Shown in pieces: positions 131 through 45,405 of a DNA stretch of 64,000 nt. Every line of letters starts with the position of its first letter. The first letter of the stretch is position 1. This DNA comes from Verrucomicrobiota bacterium (lineage in GTDB: Bacteria; Verrucomicrobiota; Verrucomicrobiia; Limisphaerales; CAIMTB01), in contig CAUJJW010000337.1 in NCBI GenBank assembly GCA_963205105.1, positions 5,909 through 69,908 on the forward strand. The letters run 5' to 3'. The translations under genes were made by a program, and so were the position numbers. The notes under the pieces are model-generated. The model was not told where the DNA came from, did no database searches, and saw only the letters and a program-made list of their open reading frames with translations.

Positions 131-232
131 AGAGCCTCCTGTTCCCAAATAACCCGTTCACGCGCCAGGAACCTCGGGGGATTCCGGGGTCGGGACGCCC
201 CCTTCAGGTCAGGCGGGACGCGCGCCGCCATG
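131..232. repeat. Degenerate copy of the REP-like composite (spacer module plus double-hairpin module)
   Basis: Aligns by eye with 42911-43016 and 33731-33812. It has the 'cctgttc...' spacer module followed by 'gattccgggg..gggacgccc...caggcgggacgc'. It overlaps the first ATG (230) of the cupin ORF. Confidence 0.5.
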
Positions 233-277
233 GATTCGCCATTCCCCAGGGGGCGGGCGGCGTGGCAGGGTGCGGTC

Positions 278-5221: not shown

Positions 5222-6250
5222 CTAACCGAACACGTTCACCCGAAGCGCCCTCGCGGTGAACAACCCTCCGTCCTGCATGCCGCGCAACGGGCGTGCCCCG
5301 GTCTTTCTCTTGACTCCGAACCGCTCCCGGCTCGATCGAAGGACTGCCTCCACAAAAACCCGGCTCCCAAACACCGCTCCATCACAAAAGTACCTAACCC
5401 GGCACCTTAAATACTCCGCTGTCGGCAGTCGTCCCTTGTCCGCCAAGACCTTCAGTACCGCTTCTCGCGTGATGCTGCCGCGTTCCTTGCTCCCATCTTC
5501 CGCGATCGGTTCCCGCTCCTCGCTGCCTTCCACGAACAGTTGCTGGCGATAGATCTCAAGCGCTTCCAACTCGCAGCCCTCCTCCTGGCGCGTCAAGGCT
5601 CGGACGATGCGCTGCAAACCTGCCCGTGCGTCAGGCTTCCCGGCGACTGCTTCCGCATAACCGCACCATCGATACTGGAGAGGATCTTTCACCAAACCCG
5701 CACGAACTGAATTCAGGTCGATGTAGGCCGCCATGGTGACCAGCGCTCGTCCCTCGCCTTCGACGATCACGCTTTTGAATCGCTCCTCCCAAAGCGTGCC
5801 GCGACGACCGTGGCATCGGTTGTAGAGGGCACTGAATCGCTGTTTCAAGACCTGCATGAAGGCGGAGAGATTCCATCGACGGGCGTGGTAGCAGGCGAGC
5901 CAACTCGCTTCTGCTTCGGCATCTCCCCGGGCCCGGATGGCTTGGAGTTCCTGTCGGGCTGCGCCCACATCCTGACAACCGGTCAGGCGCCCGAGGGCTT
6001 CGAGGGTCTCCTCGGCTGAAGGAAGGGGGTCGGGAGGTCGAGGAACATCGACGAGGATGTGAAAGTGGTTGGACATCAGACAGAAGGTAAGAATGCGGAC
6101 CTGGCAAAACTCGGCCAGTTCATGCAGGAGGGAGCGGAATTGTTCATTTTCCAGGTCGCCGAAAATGTACTGACCGTCGACAACTCGCGACATGCAGTGA
6201 GAGACGGCGGTGAATTGATCAGTAGGTGCCAGCCATCGGCGCTTCCTCAT
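5222..6250 (-). CDS. IS200-like HUH/Y1 transposase (RAYT-type, COG1943-like)
   Basis: HUH motif in 'LMSNHFHILV'. C-terminal block 'AAYIDLNSVRAGLV..PLQYRWCGY' is typical of this family. No TnpB partner. Visibly less GC-rich than its neighbours. Confidence 0.8.
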   Translation of the reverse strand: MRKRRWLAPTDQFTAVSHCMSRVVDGQYIFGDLENEQFRSLLHELAEFCQVRILTFCLMSNHFHILVDVPRPPDPLPSAEETLEALGRLTGCQDVGAARQELQAIRARGDAEAEASWLACYHARRWNLSAFMQVLKQRFSALYNRCHGRRGTLWEERFKSVIVEGEGRALVTMAAYIDLNSVRAGLVKDPLQYRWCGYAEAVAGKPDARAGLQRIVRALTRQEEGCELEALEIYRQQLFVEGSEEREPIAEDGSKERGSITREAVLKVLADKGRLPTAEYLRCRVRYFCDGAVFGSRVFVEAVLRSSRERFGVKRKTGARPLRGMQDGGLFTARALRVNVFG

Positions 6251-6297: not shown

Positions 6298-6472
6298 CAA
6301 ATCGTCTGTCACTTGGTCAGCACGTGGTGCGGCACATTGCCTGTCCCCCTGTTCGTGAGGTTTACGTCAATTCGTCTGTCACCCTGTAAACGCCTTTTAC
6401 GCCAAATCGTCTGTCACTCTGCATAAGCCTTTCGGAGAAGAGCTCCCTATAGATTGCCTGTCCCTTTGTTTG
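6298..6472. repeat. Short direct-repeat array upstream of the transposase gene
   Basis: CAA(A/T)TCGTCTGTCAC occurs at 6298-6312, 6368-6382 and 6403-6417. ATTGCCTGTCCC-NN-TGTT occurs at 6336-6355 and 6453-6472. A related ATTGCTGTCC lies at 5156-5165 on the other side of the gene. Confidence 0.7.
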
Positions 6473-13401: not shown

Positions 13402-13474
13402 ACTGAACCGGGTGGCCCGCCGGGCGAGACGCCCGACTCTACGGCAGGCGGGACGCCCACCGCTACCGAGGGTA
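13402..13474. repeat. REP-like double-hairpin unit
   Basis: 'cgggcgagacgcccg.ctctacggcaggcgggacgcccaccgctac' ending in 'ggttcatgg'. Same family as 30716-30780 and 45316-45382. Confidence 0.8.
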
Positions 13475-13503
13475 GGTTCATGGGCAGAGGCTCGGACATC
13501 CGG

Positions 13504-16243: not shown

Positions 16244-16912
16244 TTAGAAATGACGTTCGCCTGGTTGTCGGCTGCGCACGACGCGGGCAGGCACGCCGTA
16301 GGCAAGACTAAGCGGGGGCACGTCCGCAAGCACGACGGAGCCAGCGCCGATGACGGTGTGGGCTCCGACGTGGACCTTGTGGGCGAGGGTGGCGCCGAGG
16401 CAGACGCAGGAAAACTCGCCGATTTCGACGTTGCCTCCGGTGACGACGCCGGGCAGGAGGCAGGACCAGGGGTGCAGGATCCCGTCGTGATCGAGGGAGG
16501 CCCTGGTATTAACGATACAACCGGTACCGAGGCGGCAATTTGTGTTCACCACGGCCCCGGCGAGGGCGAGGGTACCGGCGCCGACTTCCACATCTCGGGC
16601 GATGACGGAAGCGGGGTGGAGGATGCTGAACAACTCCAGGCTTGGACGGAGCTGTTGGATCATGTCGTGGACCTTGGCGCGGGTGGTGTTGTCGCTGATG
16701 GCGAGGAAGTACCCATCCAGGCGATGCTCGCGGGCCAGGGCATCGAGCTCTGCGGGTTTGCCGAGCACCTGGAGGCCGGCGAGTTCAGTGCCGGCAGCGA
16801 CGAAGGTATCGGTCCAGCCGACGAGGTCGAAGCGGTCCTGGCAACGGGCGGCGTCGAGGGCCACGCGGCCATGGCCGGAGGCTCCGACAAGGACGATTCG
16901 GGGGCGGGTCAT
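16244..16912 (-). CDS. Hexapeptide-repeat sugar N-acetyltransferase (NeuD/PglD family)
   Basis: N-terminal Rossmann-like 'IVLVGASGHGRV' followed by left-handed beta-helix repeats. Confidence 0.8.
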   Translation of the reverse strand: MTRPRIVLVGASGHGRVALDAARCQDRFDLVGWTDTFVAAGTELAGLQVLGKPAELDALAREHRLDGYFLAISDNTTRAKVHDMIQQLRPSLELFSILHPASVIARDVEVGAGTLALAGAVVNTNCRLGTGCIVNTRASLDHDGILHPWSCLLPGVVTGGNVEIGEFSCVCLGATLAHKVHVGAHTVIGAGSVVLADVPPLSLAYGVPARVVRSRQPGERHF

Positions 16913-16921
16913 GGGAGGGGT
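16865..16921. repeat. 57-bp direct repeat, copy 1 (includes the acetyltransferase start codon)
   Basis: Identical base for base to 17563-17619: gcggccatggccggaggctccgacaaggacgattcgggggcgggtcatgggaggggt. Confidence 0.95.
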
Positions 16922-17562: not shown

Positions 17563-17619
17563 GCGGCCATGGCCGGAGGCTCCGACAAGGACGATTCGGG
17601 GGCGGGTCATGGGAGGGGT
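17563..17619. repeat. 57-bp direct repeat, copy 2 (abuts the rfbH stop codon)
   Basis: Identical to 16865-16921. It carries a now-orphan copy of the acetyltransferase start and first 15 codons. Confidence 0.95.
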
Positions 17620-23113: not shown

Positions 23114-24316
23114 TCAAACCTCGCCGATGTGGTGGATCGCTTCCTGGGCGACGGTGGCGCCGATGGCGAGGGAGGCGGTGGCAGCGGGGGACGGGGCGTT
23201 GCAGATGTGGATCACGTTGCCGTCGATGCGGATGTCGAAGTCGTCGAGCAAACGGCCTTCCCGGTCACAGGCCTGGGCTCGAATCCCCGCTCCGCCGGGG
23301 TCGAGGTCGGCGGCGGTGATGTCGGGGATGAGGCGTTGAAGGGCCCGGACAAAGGCGGCCTTGCTCCAGGATCGGCGGAATTCGCCGAGTCCGGTGCGCC
23401 AGTATTTGCGGGCGACGATGCGAAATCCGGGCCAGGCGAGGGTTTCGAGAGTGTCGCGGAGGTGGAAGTCCGTTTTCCGATAAGCTTCCCGACCAAAGGC
23501 GAAGACGGCGTTGGGGCCGCATTCGATACCGCCACGGATCATCCGGGTGAAGTGGACGCCCAGGAAGGGGAAGGCGGGGTCTGGAACGGGGTAAATGAGG
23601 TTGCGGACGAGATGATGGGCGGCGGGTTTGAGCACGTAATACTCGCCGCGGAAGGGTGTGATGCGCAGCGGCAGGTCGGGATGGGTGAGGCGGGCCACCC
23701 GATCGGAGTGCAGGCCGGCACAGGTGACGAGCACCCGGCCGGTCCAGGTGCGATGGGCACTGGCCACCTCGATGGCGGTGTCCTTGCGGCGGATGGCTTC
23801 GATGCGTTGTCCAAAGATGATCTCTCCGCCGAGTTCGCGGATTTTATCGGCGTACTTTTCCGCCACGGCGGTGTAGTCGACGATGCCGGTTTGGGGGACC
23901 CAGAGGCCCTGGATGCCGGTGCAATGGGGTTCGATCTCGCGGATTTCGGCGGAGGAGAGGGTACGGAGGCCGGCGAGACCGTTGGCTTCGCCGCGGCGCT
24001 GGAGTTCGGCGAGGCGGGGCAGTTCGGATTCGGAAGTGGCGACCACGATTTTGCCGCAGAGATCATGGGGGATGCCTTCCTTGCGGCAGAAGTCGATGAG
24101 TTGCTGGTAGCCGGTGCGGCAGTTGGCGGCTTTGAGTGAGCCGGGCTTGTAGTAGAGGCCGGAGTGGATGACGCCGCTGTTGTTGCCGGTTTGGTGCCGG
24201 GCGGGGGCGGGTTCCTTTTCGATCAGAACGAGCCGTGTGGCCGGGCGGCATTGGAGGAGGCGAAAGGCGGTGGCGAGACCGACGATGCCGCCGCCGACGA
24301 TGAGGACATCAGTCAT
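23114..24316 (-). CDS. lhgO: FAD-dependent L-2-hydroxyglutarate oxidase/dehydrogenase
   Basis: 'DVLIVGGGIVGLATA', 'NSGVIHSGLYYKPGSLKA', ~400 aa. Confidence 0.8.
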   Translation of the reverse strand: MTDVLIVGGGIVGLATAFRLLQCRPATRLVLIEKEPAPARHQTGNNSGVIHSGLYYKPGSLKAANCRTGYQQLIDFCRKEGIPHDLCGKIVVATSESELPRLAELQRRGEANGLAGLRTLSSAEIREIEPHCTGIQGLWVPQTGIVDYTAVAEKYADKIRELGGEIIFGQRIEAIRRKDTAIEVASAHRTWTGRVLVTCAGLHSDRVARLTHPDLPLRITPFRGEYYVLKPAAHHLVRNLIYPVPDPAFPFLGVHFTRMIRGGIECGPNAVFAFGREAYRKTDFHLRDTLETLAWPGFRIVARKYWRTGLGEFRRSWSKAAFVRALQRLIPDITAADLDPGGAGIRAQACDREGRLLDDFDIRIDGNVIHICNAPSPAATASLAIGATVAQEAIHHIGEV

Positions 24317-24370
24317 GGGAGGGGGCGCTTTTCAAAATGAGGACACGGAGAGGGAGTATGTACCGCGGCG

Positions 24371-24598
24371 CAAGGAATGGAGCGGGCGGCCCTCATCCCG
24401 GCCTTCTCCCGGAGGGAGAAGGAGAAAATGCGCCGCGAGTTTCGAGGGGTTGAGCAAAGCGTTGGCTGGAACGAGTTGATGCGGCTCGCGCGGATGGGGT
24501 TTGAGCGCGGGACGACGGGTGGAGGCGCGACTCCCTCTCCCTCCGGGAGAGGGTCGGGGTGAGGGAGCCGGTTTGCATCCTCGCGATAGCTGGCATGG
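24371..24598. repeat. REP-like mosaic (hairpin modules R2 and R3)
   Basis: 'gagcgggcggccctcatcccggccttctcccggagggagaaggagaa' and 'gactccctctccctccgggagagggtcggggtgagggagcc'. Copies at 33511-33705, 43095-43285 and 44945-45135. Confidence 0.8.
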
Positions 24599-24622
24599 AA
24601 AGGGAAGTTTGGGCGTGAACCG

Positions 24623-30580: not shown

Positions 30581-30967
30581 GCAATCGGTTCGAAATGGAT
30601 CTGCTCACCGATCATGAAACCGGGGGAGGCGGGGGGATTACGATGACGATGAGGAGTAGGAGTACGTGGACGAGGGGAGGCGCGATTCATTAATCGCGCA
30701 TGGGGACCATGAACCGAGGATTCCGGGGGGCGAGACGCCCCCCTCTACGGCAGGCGGGACGCCCGCCGCTACGGAGGCCCGGAGGGGCGATCAGAATCGA
30801 CCGCGGTGGGGTTGGTATTTAGCGGAACGCAGGATGTTCTGCCCGCCCCTGCTTTTCTGATCGCCCCTCCGGGGCTTCTGGTTTCCTTCGGGCCTTGTCC
30901 CCACGGCTCACGCCGTGGGCTCGTGCTCTTCCGCCCCGTCCGGGGCTGGGAAATCGAAGTTCATGGG
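30581..30967. repeat. REP-like mosaic, including a ~210-bp composite colinear with 45175-45396
   Basis: Modules 'ttcgaaatggatctgctcacc', 'aggagtaggagtacg', 'gattcattaatcgcgc' and the GTAG double hairpin at 30716-30780. Further hairpin-rich sequence runs to 'gttcatggg' at ~30960. Confidence 0.75.
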
Positions 30968-33485: not shown

Positions 33486-33824
33486 GGACCATGAACCGGG
33501 GTGCGAGGAGTCGAGCGGGCGGCCCTCATCCCGGCCTTCTCCCGGAGGGAGAAGGAGAACATGCGCCGCGGGTTTCGGAGGGTCGAGCTGAGCGTTGGCT
33601 GGAACGGGTCGCCACAGCTCGGATGGTTGGGGTTTAGGCGTGTTGCGGAGGGTAGCGCGCGACTCCCTCTCCCTCCGGGAGAGGGTTGGGGTGAGGGAGC
33701 CTGTTTCAACCCTCGCGACGGCTCGCATGGGAAGCCCCCTGTTCGAAATCGACCTGCTCACGGACCAGGCACCAGGGATTCCGGGGGGCGAGACGCCCGC
33801 CGCTACGGAGTTGCGGTTCATGGG
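33486..33824. repeat. REP-like mosaic inserted between the ATPase and the permease-repressor gene
   Basis: Order R2, R3, spacer module, GTAG hairpin, bounded by 'ggaccatgaacc' and 'ggttcatgg'. The ytgB-like stop codon lies inside the terminal motif. Confidence 0.85.
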
Positions 33825-40491: not shown

Positions 40492-42882
40492 ATGTTGACG
40501 ACTTCAAAACCACGCGGGAACTGGCGCCGGCCGGTGGTGGCCACCGGGTTGGTGCTTTTATTGGCCGGGTGCACCCCACCGGGTCCGAGAGCTTTGCTCG
40601 AAGGGGAACGCCTGATTCGGGAGGGCCATTCGGAGGACGCCATCCGGCGTTTGCGCACGGCGGTGGAGTTTTTGCCGGGGAACGCGCAGGCCTGGAATCA
40701 CCTGGGTTTGGCGTACCACGGCGCCAAACGTCCCACGGAAGCATCCGAGGCCTATCAGCAGGCGTTGCGGTTGGATCGGAATCTGTCGGTGGCGTACTTC
40801 AACTCCGGGTGCCTGTATTTGGAGCATGGGGAACCCATGCTGGCGACCGATGCGCTTTGGGCGTACGTGGGTCTTCAGCCGAGGGTGGTGGAAGGCTGGG
40901 TGAAGCTCGGTCAGGCCCAGTTGCGGACGCGCAAGTGGGATCAGGCGGAACGGAGCTTCGCGGAGGCGCTTCGGCTGAATCCTGCCCGGGTGGACGCGCT
41001 GAACGGGCTCGGGGTTGCCCTTCACCAGCGACGGAAAGTGCGCGAGGCCTGGCAGTCCTTCACCAACGCCGTCATGCGCGAACCTGGCTTTGCGCCGGCT
41101 TGGTTGAACCTGGGGGTGATCGCGCATCAGACCGGCGCCAGCGCCAAAGCCGCGCAGGCTTATCGGCAGTATGCGAACCTCCGTCCGGAACTGGCTCGTC
41201 AGATGGATCTGGCGGCGGTGATCGGAAAATTGGAGGCGCCGCCTGCGGCCCCGGTGATCCAACTGCCTCCAGCGCCGGGTTCGACCGGAGACAACACTCC
41301 GCGCGTCCCGGACACTGCCTCCCCCTCGGGGGCCTCGGTGGAGCCGGGGGCGCCCGAGGCCGCGACACCAGCGTCGGTAAGCGTCGCCTCGACGGATCCG
41401 CCGGTGACGAACGAGCCAGTTCAGGCAAGTCCACCCCAGGTTCCTGACCTTTCGGACACCGAGCCGACGCTGGCCGATGGGACTTCGACCAACGCCGCGC
41501 CGGTTTCTGTTTTGCAAGTGGTTGGCAACGAGAGTTCTGTGACTCAGGAAGTCGCGGCTGCCCCGGTCGCTGCATCCACTTCCACCGACGCTCCCCCCGC
41601 CTCGGTTTCGGTTCCGATTTCGGTTGTTTCGAATCCGCCTGTGCCGGCCGCGGCTCAGGAGCCTTTGGCGGTCGCGCCGGCGGAGAACACGGACGCGTTG
41701 ATCCTTCCCACACCGCCGCCGATGGAAGCGACGGCTTCGATCCCCACCGGGGTGGTGGCAGCCGCCACGTCCGTTCCGGTGGTTCCGGTGGTTCCGGTGG
41801 ATCGGGTCCAACTGCCGGCCAACGAGTCGCTGGTGATGGGGGTGCGTGACGAGGCGCCTTCCGTGGAAGCTTCCGGGGTTTCGGAGGCGGTTTCGGCGGA
41901 GGCAGGTTTGGCTCCGCTCGTTCGTCCAGTGGGGGCGCAGCGGTCGTCACCGGGAACGGATCGAGACGATCGGCGCGGCTTTTGGAGCCGGGCGAATCCG
42001 GTGAGCTGGTTCGGCTCGGAGGGGGCCAAGCCCGAAATCGCCGCGGAAGGGTCGGTTTCCGCCTCGGATCGGGAGAGTGGTGCCGCTGGTTGGCGTTGGG
42101 TGAACCCGGCGAGTTGGTTCCGAGGCAGCGGCGAAGGCGGCTCCGCGACCGCGGCAGCGTCGTCTGATCGAACGGCAGCGTTGGATGGTGGTGTGGCGAC
42201 GAACCAGGTGACTGCTTTGGCGGCTCCGGCGTCGGTGCCGGAGCGTGGGGCCACGGAAGCGGTGGAGACCGTGCCGGTGCGTCGGGCTCCGACGGCGACG
42301 TGGGCGTCGAGACCGGTTTCGACGCGGCCCGAGCCGGGGCGTGAGGCGGAGGTCGCCGTGCCGCGGGAGATCCGTCGGTACGCCTATTTGCGACCGGAGA
42401 GGCCGCCGGAGGGGAACCGGAACGCGGCGAAAGGGGTGTTGGCGCAGGCCCAGGAGGAGCATCGGCGGGACCGGGCGTCATCCGCGGTTCGGTTGTACGA
42501 GGAAGCGCTGCAATTGGATCCATCGCTGGCGGAGGCGTACCAGGAACTGGCAGTGGCGGCGCTTCAGTTGGACGATGTGCCGAGGGCGCTGGCGGCGGGT
42601 GAGATGGGGTTGCTGTTGCAGCCTCAGACGGTGGTGGGGCGACTGAATTTTGCCCTGGCGTTGGATCGGGCGGGGTACCCGGTGGATGCGGCCATGGAAG
42701 CGGAGCGGGTGGTGGGGGCGAAGCCGGATCACGTGGCGGCCCATTTGCTATTGGGGAATCTGAACGCCCAGAAATTAGGGCGTCCGGACTTGGCTCGGGT
42801 GCATTACCTGCGGGTGCTGGAACTGGAACCGACGCACCCGCAGAACGCGGCGATCCGGCGGTGGCTGGCGGGGCGTCCTTAG
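40492..42882 (+). CDS. TPR-repeat lipoprotein with a long Pro/Ala/Ser/Val-rich central linker
   Basis: Lipobox 'LLLAGC' after ATG 40492. TPR units at both ends ('AWNHLGLAYHG', 'AYQELAVAAL'). Confidence 0.75.
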   Translation: MLTTSKPRGNWRRPVVATGLVLLLAGCTPPGPRALLEGERLIREGHSEDAIRRLRTAVEFLPGNAQAWNHLGLAYHGAKRPTEASEAYQQALRLDRNLSVAYFNSGCLYLEHGEPMLATDALWAYVGLQPRVVEGWVKLGQAQLRTRKWDQAERSFAEALRLNPARVDALNGLGVALHQRRKVREAWQSFTNAVMREPGFAPAWLNLGVIAHQTGASAKAAQAYRQYANLRPELARQMDLAAVIGKLEAPPAAPVIQLPPAPGSTGDNTPRVPDTASPSGASVEPGAPEAATPASVSVASTDPPVTNEPVQASPPQVPDLSDTEPTLADGTSTNAAPVSVLQVVGNESSVTQEVAAAPVAASTSTDAPPASVSVPISVVSNPPVPAAAQEPLAVAPAENTDALILPTPPPMEATASIPTGVVAAATSVPVVPVVPVDRVQLPANESLVMGVRDEAPSVEASGVSEAVSAEAGLAPLVRPVGAQRSSPGTDRDDRRGFWSRANPVSWFGSEGAKPEIAAEGSVSASDRESGAAGWRWVNPASWFRGSGEGGSATAAASSDRTAALDGGVATNQVTALAAPASVPERGATEAVETVPVRRAPTATWASRPVSTRPEPGREAEVAVPREIRRYAYLRPERPPEGNRNAAKGVLAQAQEEHRRDRASSAVRLYEEALQLDPSLAEAYQELAVAALQLDDVPRALAAGEMGLLLQPQTVVGRLNFALALDRAGYPVDAAMEAERVVGAKPDHVAAHLLLGNLNAQKLGRPDLARVHYLRVLELEPTHPQNAAIRRWLAGRP

Positions 42883-42900
42883 AGAGGGGATGGGGAGGGG

Positions 42901-43320
42901 TGGTTCATGGAGAGTCCCCTGTTCGAAATCGACCTGCTCACGGCCCTTGAACCCGGGATTCCGGGGGGCGGGACGCCCCCCTCTACGGCAGGCGAGACGC
43001 CCCCCGCTACGGAGGCGCGGTTCATGGAGAGGAGCGTTTTCCAAGAATTGGACACGTATTGGGACCATGAACGGTGGAGCGAGGAATGCAGCGAGCGGCC
43101 CTCACCCCGGCCCTCTCCCGGAGGGAGAGGGAGAATAGTTCCCGCGGGTTTCGAAGGGTTGGGCCGGGTGTTGGCTGGAACAAGTCGTGTCGGCTCGGAC
43201 GGTTGGATTTCTGGCATGTCGCCGTGCGGGATATGCGGCTCCCTCTCCCTCCGGGAGAGGGTTGGGGTGAGGGTGCCCGTTTCACCCCCCGCGACGGCTT
43301 CCTGGGTGAGCTTCATGGGG
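42901..43320. repeat. REP-like mosaic
   Basis: Spacer module, GTAG double hairpin (42956-43016), R2 and R3, delimited by 'ggttcatgg', 'gaccatgaac' and 'cttcatgggg'. The stop of 43313..43933 lies in the last motif. Confidence 0.85.
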
Positions 43321-43933
43321 TGGGCGGGTGGTTTTCGCCGTCCTTCCAGAAGGTTTGGCGGACGACTTTCCCGTTTTCGAGTTCGACTTCGGCCTTCAGG
43401 GAGCCGCTGGCAAACCAGGCGCGGGAACTGCCGTGGGGTTGACCGTTCGTGAGATGGATTTCCTCGGCGAGCACCCCGTTGGTGTGCCAGCGCCGGAAGG
43501 TGCCTTCGAGTTGGCCGTGGCGGGCGGTGCCTTCGGAGAGTCGTGAGCCGTCGGGGTGCCACTTCTCGACGGGTCCGTGGCCGACGCCTTCGACGAACTG
43601 TTCTCGGATCTGGAGGTTGCCGTTGGTGTGGAAACCTTCCGAGACGCCGTTCAACACGCCATTGGAGATTTGGGTGCGCGATTTGAGAGGACCATCGGGG
43701 TAGCTCTCGGTCATCCAGCCCGTGAACGCCGCATTGGTGTTCCCGCGGAGCACGAGCCGACCGTCCATGCGGATCAGTTGGGATGCATCGACCTCGGCCA
43801 GCGGGGGCGGGGTGGGTGATGGGGGCAGTGGGCGACGAGAGTAGGCCAACCACGCGAGCATGCCTGCAAGGACGACGAGTCCCAAAGCCCACGCCAACGA
43901 GCGGGAGTTGGATGGAGCCGTGGAGGTCGGCAT
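43313..43933 (-). CDS. Membrane-anchored MORN-variant repeat protein (YwqK-like)
   Basis: N-terminal TM 'LAWALGLVVLAGMLAWLAY', then repeated 'G...G....W..NG' units. Confidence 0.7.
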   Translation of the reverse strand: MPTSTAPSNSRSLAWALGLVVLAGMLAWLAYSRRPLPPSPTPPPLAEVDASQLIRMDGRLVLRGNTNAAFTGWMTESYPDGPLKSRTQISNGVLNGVSEGFHTNGNLQIREQFVEGVGHGPVEKWHPDGSRLSEGTARHGQLEGTFRRWHTNGVLAEEIHLTNGQPHGSSRAWFASGSLKAEVELENGKVVRQTFWKDGENHPPTP

Positions 43934-43935
43934 GG

Positions 43936-44781
43936 CTAGCGCACCACGAGGCGGAAGAACCGGGATCCTTCCACGGCGTCCGTGGAGGGACCGACCAGGG
44001 CCCGGATGGGGCGAACGTCGGTGGCGGTGAAGGACCTCCGTTCCGCTGCATCGGCGGGATCGGAGGGCAGGGTGAAGGAGACAGGGGCCCAGGCGGTCAT
44101 GTTCTGGGAAACCTGAATGGAGTAGGTGCGGCCGCGAATGGCGGTGAACTCGAGAACCGACCGTCCTGCGGCGGTGGACACGATGGCGAGGGCGAAGCCA
44201 TCGGCGGGGTCGAAGGCGTAGGTACCGGCGAGGTACTCGTTGAGATTGCTGAGTCCATCGCCGTCGTCGTCATCCTTGGGGCGGATGTCGCCGAGAGAGC
44301 GGTTGCCGCCGGAAGCGGCAATGAGGGCCTGTTCCCAGGCATCGGGAAGGCCATCGCCGTCGGAGTCGATGCCGAGGGTGAGGTCGAGTCGGGTTTCGGC
44401 GCCGGGTTCGGTGAAAACCTTGGCGGCGCCGGTCATTTCGATGGGCAAGTAGGTGGTGGAACCGATGCGGACGCGCATGCGGAACGGGACGATAGGTCGG
44501 AGAGCGGATGGCTTGTAGAGGTCGTCGGTGGTGCCGGAGTCGAGAGGGATGGGGAGTCGGTAATTGAAGCCTGAGTCCGCGTTGGCGGCGGAGGTGGTGG
44601 CGATGGCAGCGCGGACGGTGGGTGCGCCCTCGGTTTCGAGGAAAACCTGGGCATTGGGGACGTTGAGGGGATTGCCGAGTTCATCGCGGACCGTGCCGAA
44701 CACGAGGTGATGCGGGGCGGGGGGGAAGGCGTTGGCGCTGGTGGCGGCCAGGAGGGCGGCGGCGGCGAGGATGGGCTTCAT
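43936..44781 (-). CDS. Secreted protein with TSP3-type Ca-binding motifs and the shared C-terminal tail
   Basis: Signal peptide from ATG 44781 ('MKPILAAAALLAATSANA'). 'DSDGDGLPDAWE', 'DDDGDGLSNLNEYLAGT', '...RTYSIQVSQNMTAW...RFFRLVV'. The upstream 208 codons of the ORF call are REP repeats. Confidence 0.75.
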   Translation of the reverse strand: MKPILAAAALLAATSANAFPPAPHHLVFGTVRDELGNPLNVPNAQVFLETEGAPTVRAAIATTSAANADSGFNYRLPIPLDSGTTDDLYKPSALRPIVPFRMRVRIGSTTYLPIEMTGAAKVFTEPGAETRLDLTLGIDSDGDGLPDAWEQALIAASGGNRSLGDIRPKDDDDGDGLSNLNEYLAGTYAFDPADGFALAIVSTAAGRSVLEFTAIRGRTYSIQVSQNMTAWAPVSFTLPSDPADAAERRSFTATDVRPIRALVGPSTDAVEGSRFFRLVVR

Positions 44782-44820
44782 GGGGAGGAACGATTTCCGG
44801 AATGAGGAGATAGGATGGGG

Positions 44821-45396
44821 CCATGAACTGGAGATTCCGGTGGGCGGGACGCCCGCCGCTACGGATGACCGGTTGATGGGTAGGAGCGTTTGCCAAAACT
44901 TGGACACGTATGAGGGCCATGAACCGAGGAGCGAGGAATGCAGCGAGCGGCCCTCACCCCGGCCCTCTCCCGGTGGGAGAGGGAGAAAACGCTCCGCGGA
45001 TTTCGAAGGGCCAAGCCGAGCGTTGGCTGGTGCGGTTGGCGACGGCTCTGAAGGACGGGGTTCAGGCCTGTCGCCGAGGGCAGGACGCGACACCCTATCC
45101 CCCCGGGAGAGGGTTGGGGTGAGGGAGCCGGCTTCAACCCTCGCGATAGCTTGCATGGGTAGGTTCATGGTAAGTCCACTGCTCGAAACCGACCTGCTTA
45201 CGGACCATGAACCTGGGGAGGCGGGCGGAATACGATTAGGAGTAGGAGTACGATGACGAGGGGAAGGCAGGTTCATGGAGAGGCCCCACGATTCACGAAT
45301 CGCGCATTGGGACCATGAACCCGGGATTCCGGGGGGCGAGACGCCCCCCTCCACGGCAGGCGGGACGCCCGCCGCTACGGAGGCGTGGTGCATGGG
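44821..45396. repeat. Largest REP-like mosaic (fills the whole intergenic region)
   Basis: Half hairpin unit 44833-44868, R2, R3, then a ~210-bp composite ending with the GTAG double hairpin at 45316-45382. Confidence 0.85.
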
Positions 45397-45405
45397 AAGG
45401 TGCAT

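Follow-up and report, generated by a model that had tools for sequence, protein, structure and literature searches.

Tandem GTAG hairpins as probable REP elements of Verrucomicrobiota associated with one RAYT clade

Repeat sites and their surroundings

The stretch analyzed here, called the window throughout, comprises 64,000 nucleotides (nt) of a Verrucomicrobiota bacterium (assembly GCA_963205105.1, contig CAUJJW010000337.1, positions 5,909 to 69,908; 64.8% G+C) and carries a family of short hairpin-forming repeats that resemble repetitive extragenic palindromic (REP) elements, whose partner enzymes are the REP-associated tyrosine transposases (RAYTs). Position numbers and counts refer to this window unless another genome or locus is named. 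The region at 44782-45405 lies between two minus-strand genes, an open reading frame (ORF) of 2692 amino acids (aa) with its TAA stop at 45406 and the gene of a secreted TSP3-repeat protein with its ATG at 44781. An earlier note, made from the sequence alone, had proposed seven sites of a GTAG-headed hairpin repeat across the window, and a covariance model of 149 distinct copies (145 from other genomes and 4 from the window), searched against the window without filters, returned exactly those seven. All seven significant matches are on the minus strand, and the best match beneath them reaches merely 12.4 bits (E 0.036). By type, they are four full doublets (67-79 bits), one decayed doublet, and two single units:

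45325-45380, minus strand: full REP doublet CCGTAGCGGCGGGCGTCCCGCCTGCCGTGGAGGGGGGCGTCTCGCCCCCCGGAATC, 76.0 bits; begins 27 nt past the TAA of the 2692-aa gene
44832-44864, minus strand: single hybrid REP unit, 24.6 bits, with deletions at 23 model positions; 51 nt ahead of the ATG at 44781
42957-43012, minus strand: full REP doublet, 73.2 bits; within a 1053-nt mosaic between convergent TSP3-repeat and TPR genes
33776-33808, minus strand: single hybrid REP unit, 22.1 bits; 11 nt past the stop of an ABC-transporter ATPase gene, in a metal-transporter operon
30719-30774, minus strand: full REP doublet, 78.9 bits; an ABC-3 permease gene lies 208 nt upstream of the doublet
13413-13468, minus strand: full REP doublet, 67.1 bits; between DegT aminotransferase and transketolase genes, and kept at the orthologous site of a metagenomic relative (L153:2548-2603)
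180-233, minus strand: decayed doublet with ATGG replacing GTAG and broken stems, 25.2 bits; BLAST similarity to 42909-43007
129-179: decayed spacer module following the decayed doublet

Of these seven sites in 64 kb, six lie between called or Pfam-supported genes, the genes around 180-233 being left out of this count. Two of the sites had been described as half-copies; the sites are real, but they hold single hybrid units spanning both units of the doublet rather than halves of it. Each is 33 nt long and consists of GTAGCGGC, the 5' part of unit 1, the core GGGCGTCyCGCC, a 12-nt sequence common to both units, and CCCCGGAATC, the 3' part of unit 2. As judged from their alignment to the model, these hybrids look like the product expected of a deletion between the two 12-nt cores.

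High G+C makes short GC hairpins frequent, and chance palindromes in a 65% GC genome were considered as a source of the doublets. This origin was rejected and is next to impossible, since the 20-mer GTAGCGGCGGGCGTCCCGCC, with up to 3 mismatches allowed, finds 11 matches, on the minus strand only, compared with 0.04 expected from shuffles, and the 56-nt unit is found again, with compensatory changes, in dozens of other genomes.

Structure and conservation of the doublet

Written along the minus strand, the unit is CC-GTAG-CGGCGGGCG-tcc-CGCCTGCCG-TAGAG-GGGGGCG-tct-CGCCCCC-CGGAATC, a 56-nt tandem pair of GTAG-tagged hairpins. The tandem layout of GTAG and GC hairpin given in the earlier note is borne out, although the stem of hairpin 1 has 9 bp (CGGCGGGCG/CGCCTGCCG), one of them a G.T pair, and not 6; the stem ends on the G that opens the second GTAG. 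The further claim that this is the layout of REP elements, an unpaired GTAG 5' of a GC hairpin, agrees with both the fold and the copies. GTAG or GTGG precedes both hairpins, with G3, T4, and G6 invariant in the 149 copies. As single-stranded DNA (ssDNA), the doublet at 45325-45380 is predicted to fold into two hairpins at -21.9 kcal/mol (z -4.0), and its complement at -19.4 kcal/mol.

Across the 149 copies, 97% of stem cells pair in the standard way, compared with 34-49% when the partner column is slid, and both sides are altered in 13 of the 17 pairs; the observed values were reached by none of 500 shuffles. For example, 45 sequences have U-A in place of G-C, and about 70 have C-G in place of G-C; these figures count sequences and not independent events. 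The 149 copies had first been picked with a hairpin filter, and ascertainment was repeated with sequence anchors alone. The anchor-picked candidates split into two groups, one of 235 that form 8-9 of 9 pairs and one of about 90, chance matches, that form 6 or fewer, so the pairing signal was not created by the filter. One stem pair is G.U in 66 sequences and would be a C.A mismatch on the opposite strand, which implies that selection acts on the GTAG strand; by these G.U pairs and by its lower fold energy, the GTAG strand is the folding strand. Two marks of a REP of the GTAG superfamily, an unpaired GTAG at the foot of the stem and a stem kept by compensatory substitution, are present.

Rho-independent terminators were rejected as an identity for the doublets, because neither hairpin is followed by a T-run, the tail being GGAATCCCGG. 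A terminator scan of 42700-45600 did not pick the doublets and returned one unrelated site compared with 1.6 expected. Searches against Rfam gave no match at the gathering score in the window, and none at E<=1 in 42850-45450.

Distribution in other genomes and association with a RAYT clade

An exact-pattern scan of one genome per species, which shows distribution and not copies per genome, gave at least 67 loci. Among the loci listed, most belong to Verrucomicrobiota metagenome-assembled genomes (MAGs) with 55-63% G+C and have this tandem doublet as well; hairpin 1 is nearly invariant in them, and hairpin 2 occurs with several covarying stems. In about 35 of 41 doublets of other genomes among the loci listed, an inverted partner doublet lies 95-140 nt downstream, and the resulting inverted-pair element measures roughly 190 bp with its GTAG ends outermost.

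Screening the listed loci for Y1 proteins gave two matches, L042 and L048, in both of which each flank of a 217-aa Y1 gene consists of a doublet, about 70 nt, and an inverted doublet. The protein has an HUH motif (NHVHAVV) and a tyrosine motif (AYVENNP), scores 95.3 and 90.4 bits on the NCBIfam model NF047646, "REP-associated tyrosine transposase" (cut-off 80), and has as its closest PDB structure 4ER8, E. coli TnpAREP (E 5e-8). Its homologs fall into more than 7,000 clusters, and the best 120 clusters are 73-100% identical to the query; many of these 120 are on contigs of about 1 kb, as fits a gene lying between high-copy repeats.

A metagenome scan with an alignment of this cognate RAYT clade yielded 79 RAYT loci, at which a doublet of at least 45 bits was sought beside the gene. 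It was present at 40 of 40 loci with RAYTs of at least 63% identity to the query and at none of the 39 loci of the sister group, with RAYTs 41-59% identical, a division that supports a REP/RAYT pairing. The usual layout is [+][-] gene [+][-] in terms of doublet orientation, and the RAYT stop codon often falls within the downstream GTAG. Transposase genes flanked by their own repeats, the arrangement of a REPtron, are accordingly found in relatives and not within the window. At L105 (66% G+C, RAYT 63% identical), the flanking sequence GTAGCGGCAGGCGTCCCGCCTGCCGTAGAGGGTGGCGTCCCGCCACCCGGAATCCCG is very near the window unit and includes the window-type tail GGAATCCCG. At L105:2001-2300, upstream of the intact gene, REP doublets are interleaved with two partial duplicates of the RAYT gene's 5' end.

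RAYTs of the sister group are flanked by other GTAG tandem doublets, such as GTAGCGCAGATTttcAATCTGC, and the head-to-tail arrangement of two hairpins therefore predates the sequence family. At L108, L118, and L124, sister RAYTs 50-56% identical are flanked by GTAGCGCAGATTttcAATCTGC-TGTATC-GCCGATTtgcAATCGGC. Another type, homologous to Oter_2468 and present in a Rariglobus hedericola genome (named from its transposase), has the flanking REP GTAGGGCCTGAyCTTGCGTCAGGCC. Each RAYT clade is thus paired with a REP of its own.

Over 4.4 kb, the relative L153 matches the window at about 92% identity, and its orthologous DegT-transketolase spacer also holds a doublet. This doublet is 90% identical to the paralog at 45311-45400 and 95% to that at 30705-30778; the ortholog at 13413-13468 is more distant, and its second stem differs from that of L153 on both arms. 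The greater likeness to paralogs than to the ortholog suggests homogenization or replacement acting on the doublet itself.

Short Logan contigs of the source organism, from runs ERR10643337-9, are 100% identical to the window and break inside or beside the repeat mosaics. All three end at 30896, just past the hairpin CCCACGGCgtgaGCCGTGGG (30900-30919), and two end at 33540-33542 on the other side, which suggests further repeats with copies outside the window.

Orientation and a possible RNA role

Every copy in the window lies on the sense strand of its neighboring genes, and the doublet is therefore probably also transcribed as an RNA hairpin. A stronger form of this idea, compatible with a REP identity, would have the doublets act mainly as RNA, with sense hairpins that shield mRNA from 3' exonucleases or set differential expression, and with a RAYT link that is historical. 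It draws on the placement of all seven copies on the strand of the flanking minus-strand genes, on the position of three of them 11-37 nt past a stop codon (of the 2692-aa, ATPase, and DegT genes), and on the G.U pairs that mark the GTAG strand as the folding strand; REPs are also mostly downstream of coding regions according to Di Nocera et al. (2013; PMC3733652). Several observations count against it: the doublets have no T-run after their hairpins, were passed over by the terminator scan, and match nothing in Rfam even at E<=1, and the inverted pairs of other genomes put both orientations at each site. Gene orientation in those genomes is even, 17 same versus 19 opposite, in a crude count made with a gene caller based on third-position G+C (GC3), too crude below 60% GC; by the same crude caller, doublets within 100 nt of a gene in other genomes are mostly co-oriented, 12 versus 2. 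Transcription and replication direction are, moreover, confounded in the window. Taken together, a mainly RNA-based role appears doubtful.

The window has a very strong GC skew (+0.22 on the plus strand), which is also positive when taken at third codon positions, whichever strand a gene is on. The C-rich strand nevertheless holds most of the genes, the 2692-aa one among them.

The Y1 gene within the window

A transposase-like gene within the window had been put forward in the earlier note as the partner of the repeats:

5222-6250, minus strand: Y1/HUH transposase-like gene, not part of the element; Y1_Tnp Pfam match at 4e-9, with HFH and YIDLN motifs

That its product recognizes the GTAG units could be argued from this Pfam match, from the HUH motif HFH and the YIDLN tyrosine motif, and from the JGI naming of several homologs as "REP element-mobilizing transposase RayT". 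The protein nevertheless scores 50.5 bits on REP_Tyr_transpos (NF047646), below the cut-off of 80, has no PDB relative at E<=1, and is 29% identical to the doublet-flanked RAYT over 75 residues only. Around the gene there is neither a GTAG unit nor a flanking inverted repeat; its upstream flank has instead other, direct repeats, three of AGTGACAGACGATTTG (6298-6418) and two of AACAGGGGGACAGGCAAT (6336-6353 and 6453-6470), which are conserved in L071 and L153. An 87% identical homolog has the same gene neighborhood in L153, and the sole doublet of that 14-kb locus is 7.4 kb from it; near the 81% identical homologs of loci L154-L156, no doublet is present in 4-10 kb of flank. On these grounds the gene was rejected as a RAYT, and its role as the transposase of the doublets is highly improbable.

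The protein resembles instead the TIRYT class of long Y1 proteins in Di Nocera et al. (2013; PMC3733652). It is alike in length (342 aa) and in a C-terminal extension with a basic KRKTGARP end, and its motifs CLMSNHFHILV, GTLWEERFKS, and YIDLNSVRAGLV resemble those of gbm 2474, rba 2408, and dau 2153 in the alignment of that paper. Upstream of the gene, GGGGACAG fits the GGGGWSAS of TIRYTs but occurs as direct repeats only, and the gene differs from TIRYTs in having no terminal inverted repeat and no inverted GGGGACAG partner downstream. The comparison points to a TIRYT-like Y1 protein other than the RAYT of the doublets. Its third-position GC skew is 0.03, that of its neighbors 0.3-0.6. Its family comprises over 7,900 clusters, and contigs of 1.2-2 kb carry many of them. 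Exact look-up of the window Y1 protein (with either start) and of Oter_2468 returned no record.

Brackets and mosaic modules

The doublets of the window are set in larger arrays of recurrent sequences. At five of the seven sites, CCATGAACC (with at most 1 mismatch) stands 8 nt ahead of GTAG, and at five of seven GGTTCATGG stands 3 nt past the unit; GGTTCATGG occurs 12 times in the window compared with 0.75 expected. At site 30719 the upstream arm of this bracket is missing. Modules of 52-55 nt with GGTTCATGG and CCATGAACC ends are of three inner types. The bracket arms, modules, and a longer composite element lie as follows:

45387-45395, minus strand: CCATGCACC, upstream arm of the 9-bp inverted repeat bracketing the doublet, with its partner GGTTCATGG at 45313-45321
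43019-43027/42945-42953, 33815-33823, 13475-13483, and 44871-44879/44821-44829: further brackets
45270-45321: 52-nt module GGTTCATGG-34 nt-CCATGAACC with inner palindrome cgcgattcgtgaatcg
45162-45213, 44871-44925, 44775-44829, 43019-43073, and 42902-42953: sister modules of 45270-45321
44902-45170, minus strand: composite element of about 250 nt with two inverted 35-mers (R2, R3), 77-83% identity by self-BLAST
43022-43318, 33486-33734, and 24313-24602: other copies of the composite element

The other recurrent modules that the earlier note had described in these mosaics are real, its R2 and R3 being the two inverted 35-mers of the composite element of about 250 nt, which is present four times. 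Each 35-mer holds the hairpin CCCTCTCCCggaGGGAGAGGG, and the copy at 24313-24602 has no adjoining GTAG unit. A gtgagcaggtcgatttcgaa module occurs 4 times compared with 0 expected, the hairpin CCCTCTCCCggaGGGAGAGGG at 8 places, and a gcgcgattcgtgaatcg module at 2 places, and self-comparison of the window delineates seven repeat-rich spacers in which all module copies have the same orientation. One module type has a close relative in a distant verrucomicrobial MAG (L043:5002-5056), and the 52-55-nt modules are by this token a second widespread small-repeat family.

Bacterial interspersed mosaic elements (BIMEs) and REPINs are inverted REP pairs. The description of the arrays as BIME-like holds for mosaics of several recurrent modules, but it is only loosely right, since the window has no inverted REP pairs and its doublets are for this reason not BIMEs or REPINs in the strict sense.

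These arrays raise the alternative that the doublets are passengers in this genome and that the spreading unit is the module of about 92 nt bracketed by CCATGAACC...GGTTCATGG, resembling a miniature inverted-repeat transposable element (MITE) or a REP in a palindromic target, or else that mosaics are copied by recombination. The bracket on each side at five of seven sites, at fixed distances, the excess of GGTTCATGG, and the other 52-55-nt modules with the same ends would all be expected of such passengers, and REPs within palindromic targets are described for other species by Di Nocera et al. (2013; PMC3733652). The same can be said of the 334-nt alignment between 44843-45170 and 42991-43318, at 80% identity and in the same module order; shared order at such identity implies that block duplication contributed and that some copies may not have been spread by a RAYT. 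The doublets, in contrast, are more alike than what adjoins them (92% identity between 45316-45395 and 42948-43027, about 80% for the adjacent modules), and the L153 copy, nearer to window paralogs (90-95%) than to its ortholog, suggests turnover of the doublet itself. Site 30719 does without the upstream arm, and the L105 REPtron does without the 9-bp bracket. We therefore regard the passenger scenario as unlikely.

The repeats also touch on gene borders and reading frames. The TGA of the ATPase gene falls within the CCATGAACC at 33815-33823, together with an overlapping ATG from which a 601-aa ORF starts, and the ATG of the TSP3-repeat gene falls within CCATGAAGC at 44775-44783. Long minus-strand ORFs at 43936-45405 and 42879-44051 extend across entire repeat mosaics. 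Two mosaics have one minus-strand frame that is open throughout, an openness equaled by only 3-4% of dinucleotide shuffles, and three other mosaics are ordinary; the translated mosaics were accordingly rejected as coding sequence, and the open frames are probably a matter of composition. Elsewhere, a 57-nt stretch occurs with 100% identity at 16865-16921 and 17563-17619, about 700 nt apart, each copy spanning the start and first codons of a minus-strand ORF (MTRPRIVLVGASGHGR...).

A more speculative conjecture, to which we give little credence, is that the doublet has gone from a RAYT-driven inverted pair to a cassette of a modular intergenic system, whose modules end in CCATGAACC/GGTTCATGG, share one sense orientation, and have their 9-mers on real start and stop codons. 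On this view the mosaics would not be selfish DNA but transcribed, selected spacers with a part in shaping operon junctions.

Comparison with known systems

The REPINs of Pseudomonas, reportedly described by Bertels and Rainey in 2011, have a counterpart in the element of about 190 bp found in most other Verrucomicrobiota, which likewise consists of two inverted arms around a spacer and flanks a single well-conserved RAYT gene. The difference is that each verrucomicrobial arm is a tandem two-hairpin doublet and that the arms are solo in the window. The sub-terminal hairpins of IS200/IS605 elements are ssDNA hairpins recognized by a Y1 HUH transposase, with one strand active. The doublets would be alike in offering a single-strand hairpin for such an enzyme with one active strand, but the transposase gene is outside the repeat unit here, and the copies are far more numerous and much shorter.

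The REP/BIME elements of E. coli and their RAYT (TnpAREP, yafM; Nunvar 2010; Ton-Hoang 2012, PMC3333891; PDB 4ER8) show a likeness as well: the repeats are dispersed and extragenic, and each is a short GC-rich imperfect palindrome preceded on its 5' side by an unpaired GTAG. TnpAREP binds single-stranded REP and cuts nearby, and it needs the GTAG and the hairpin stem (PMC3333891). The E. coli REPtron is likewise a Y1/HUH gene flanked by its own repeats, and the verrucomicrobial RAYT matches 4ER8 and passes the NCBIfam model. Whereas the E. coli REP is a single element, here two different GTAG hairpins, joined head-to-tail through a shared base, make up the unit, and unlike BIMEs, the window is without REP/iREP inverted pairs; the verrucomicrobial RAYT, known here from its sequence, differs from TnpAREP in being 217 aa long with an extra N-terminal part of about 95 residues.

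The GTAG superfamily was defined by Di Nocera et al. (2013; PMC3733652), who describe GTAG REPs as highly enriched in the verrucomicrobium Opitutus terrae. The family GTAG-19 of this species (Di Nocera, De Gregorio, and Rocco, 2013; PMC3733652) is a published parallel: its host is also verrucomicrobial, its GTAG is often mutated to GTGG, and its copies are often at gene ends or inside ORFs, as here. The REP-encoded GTAG-19 peptides GTGVPPV and HGRDARAT given there back-translate to GTGG-CACGGGCGTCCCGCCCGTG, with the same core GGGCGTCCCGCC, so that GTAG-19 appears to share the doublet core, family identity resting on these back-translated peptides. In GTAG-19 the outer stem is CACGGGCG/CGCCCGTG, compared with CGGCGGGCG/CGCCTGCCG here, and the units stand tail-to-tail, 1-2 bp apart, compared with head-to-tail here. 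A literature search did not find the core sequence or any account of the verrucomicrobial doublet with its RAYT clade, and returned one paper on verrucomicrobial REPs (PMC3733652).

Interpretation

The doublets are best explained as REP elements of the GTAG superfamily, forming a family common in Verrucomicrobiota and bound to one RAYT clade, a reading to which we assign a probability of roughly 0.8. The elements would be short and non-autonomous, and the GTAG strand of the doublet, as ssDNA, would fold into a pair of neighboring GC hairpins. As the analogy of E. coli TnpAREP suggests, a RAYT would recognize a hairpin together with its 5' GTAG on ssDNA, and would cut and rejoin nearby, so that units could be copied, deleted, and homogenized. 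The cognate RAYT of this genome would lie outside the 64-kb window or have been lost, and in this lineage the doublet stands singly instead of in inverted pairs, within the 9-bp inverted-repeat bracket and as part of larger mosaics. What the data show directly is the fold, its upkeep through compensatory change, and the pairing with a RAYT in relatives; binding and cleavage, movement of the units in this genome, and any RNA role are inferred.

Four points weigh against this reading. No cognate-clade RAYT is present in the window, where tblastn gives just the unrelated Y1 gene (29% over 75 residues), and no inverted partner lies within 300 nt of the window doublets, the best score being 8-11. 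The covariation figures, as said, count sequences and not independent events. Some copies, finally, may have spread by block duplication instead of by a RAYT, as the order and identity of their modules suggest.

Significance

For annotation, about 2.5 kb of the window that reads as long ORFs (43936-45405 and 42879-44051) is repeat mosaic and not protein-coding, stretches that gene callers will mis-annotate, and the transposase-like gene at 5222-6250 should not be named a REP mobilizer. The principle of REP and RAYT is already known, and a REP that appears to have the same core has already been published for O. terrae as GTAG-19 (PMC3733652); the local peculiarities are the head-to-tail doublet as the unit, the solo copies, and the 9-bp bracket. 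For Verrucomicrobiota, the finding provides a compact, testable REP/RAYT pair, with a putative 56-nt two-hairpin substrate whose covarying positions are mapped and a highly conserved clade of 217-aa RAYTs, 75-96% identical within the best 120 of over 7,000 protein clusters. The all-or-none association between the doublet and this clade could be of use in work on substrate recognition by RAYTs and on the co-evolution of REPs with their enzymes.

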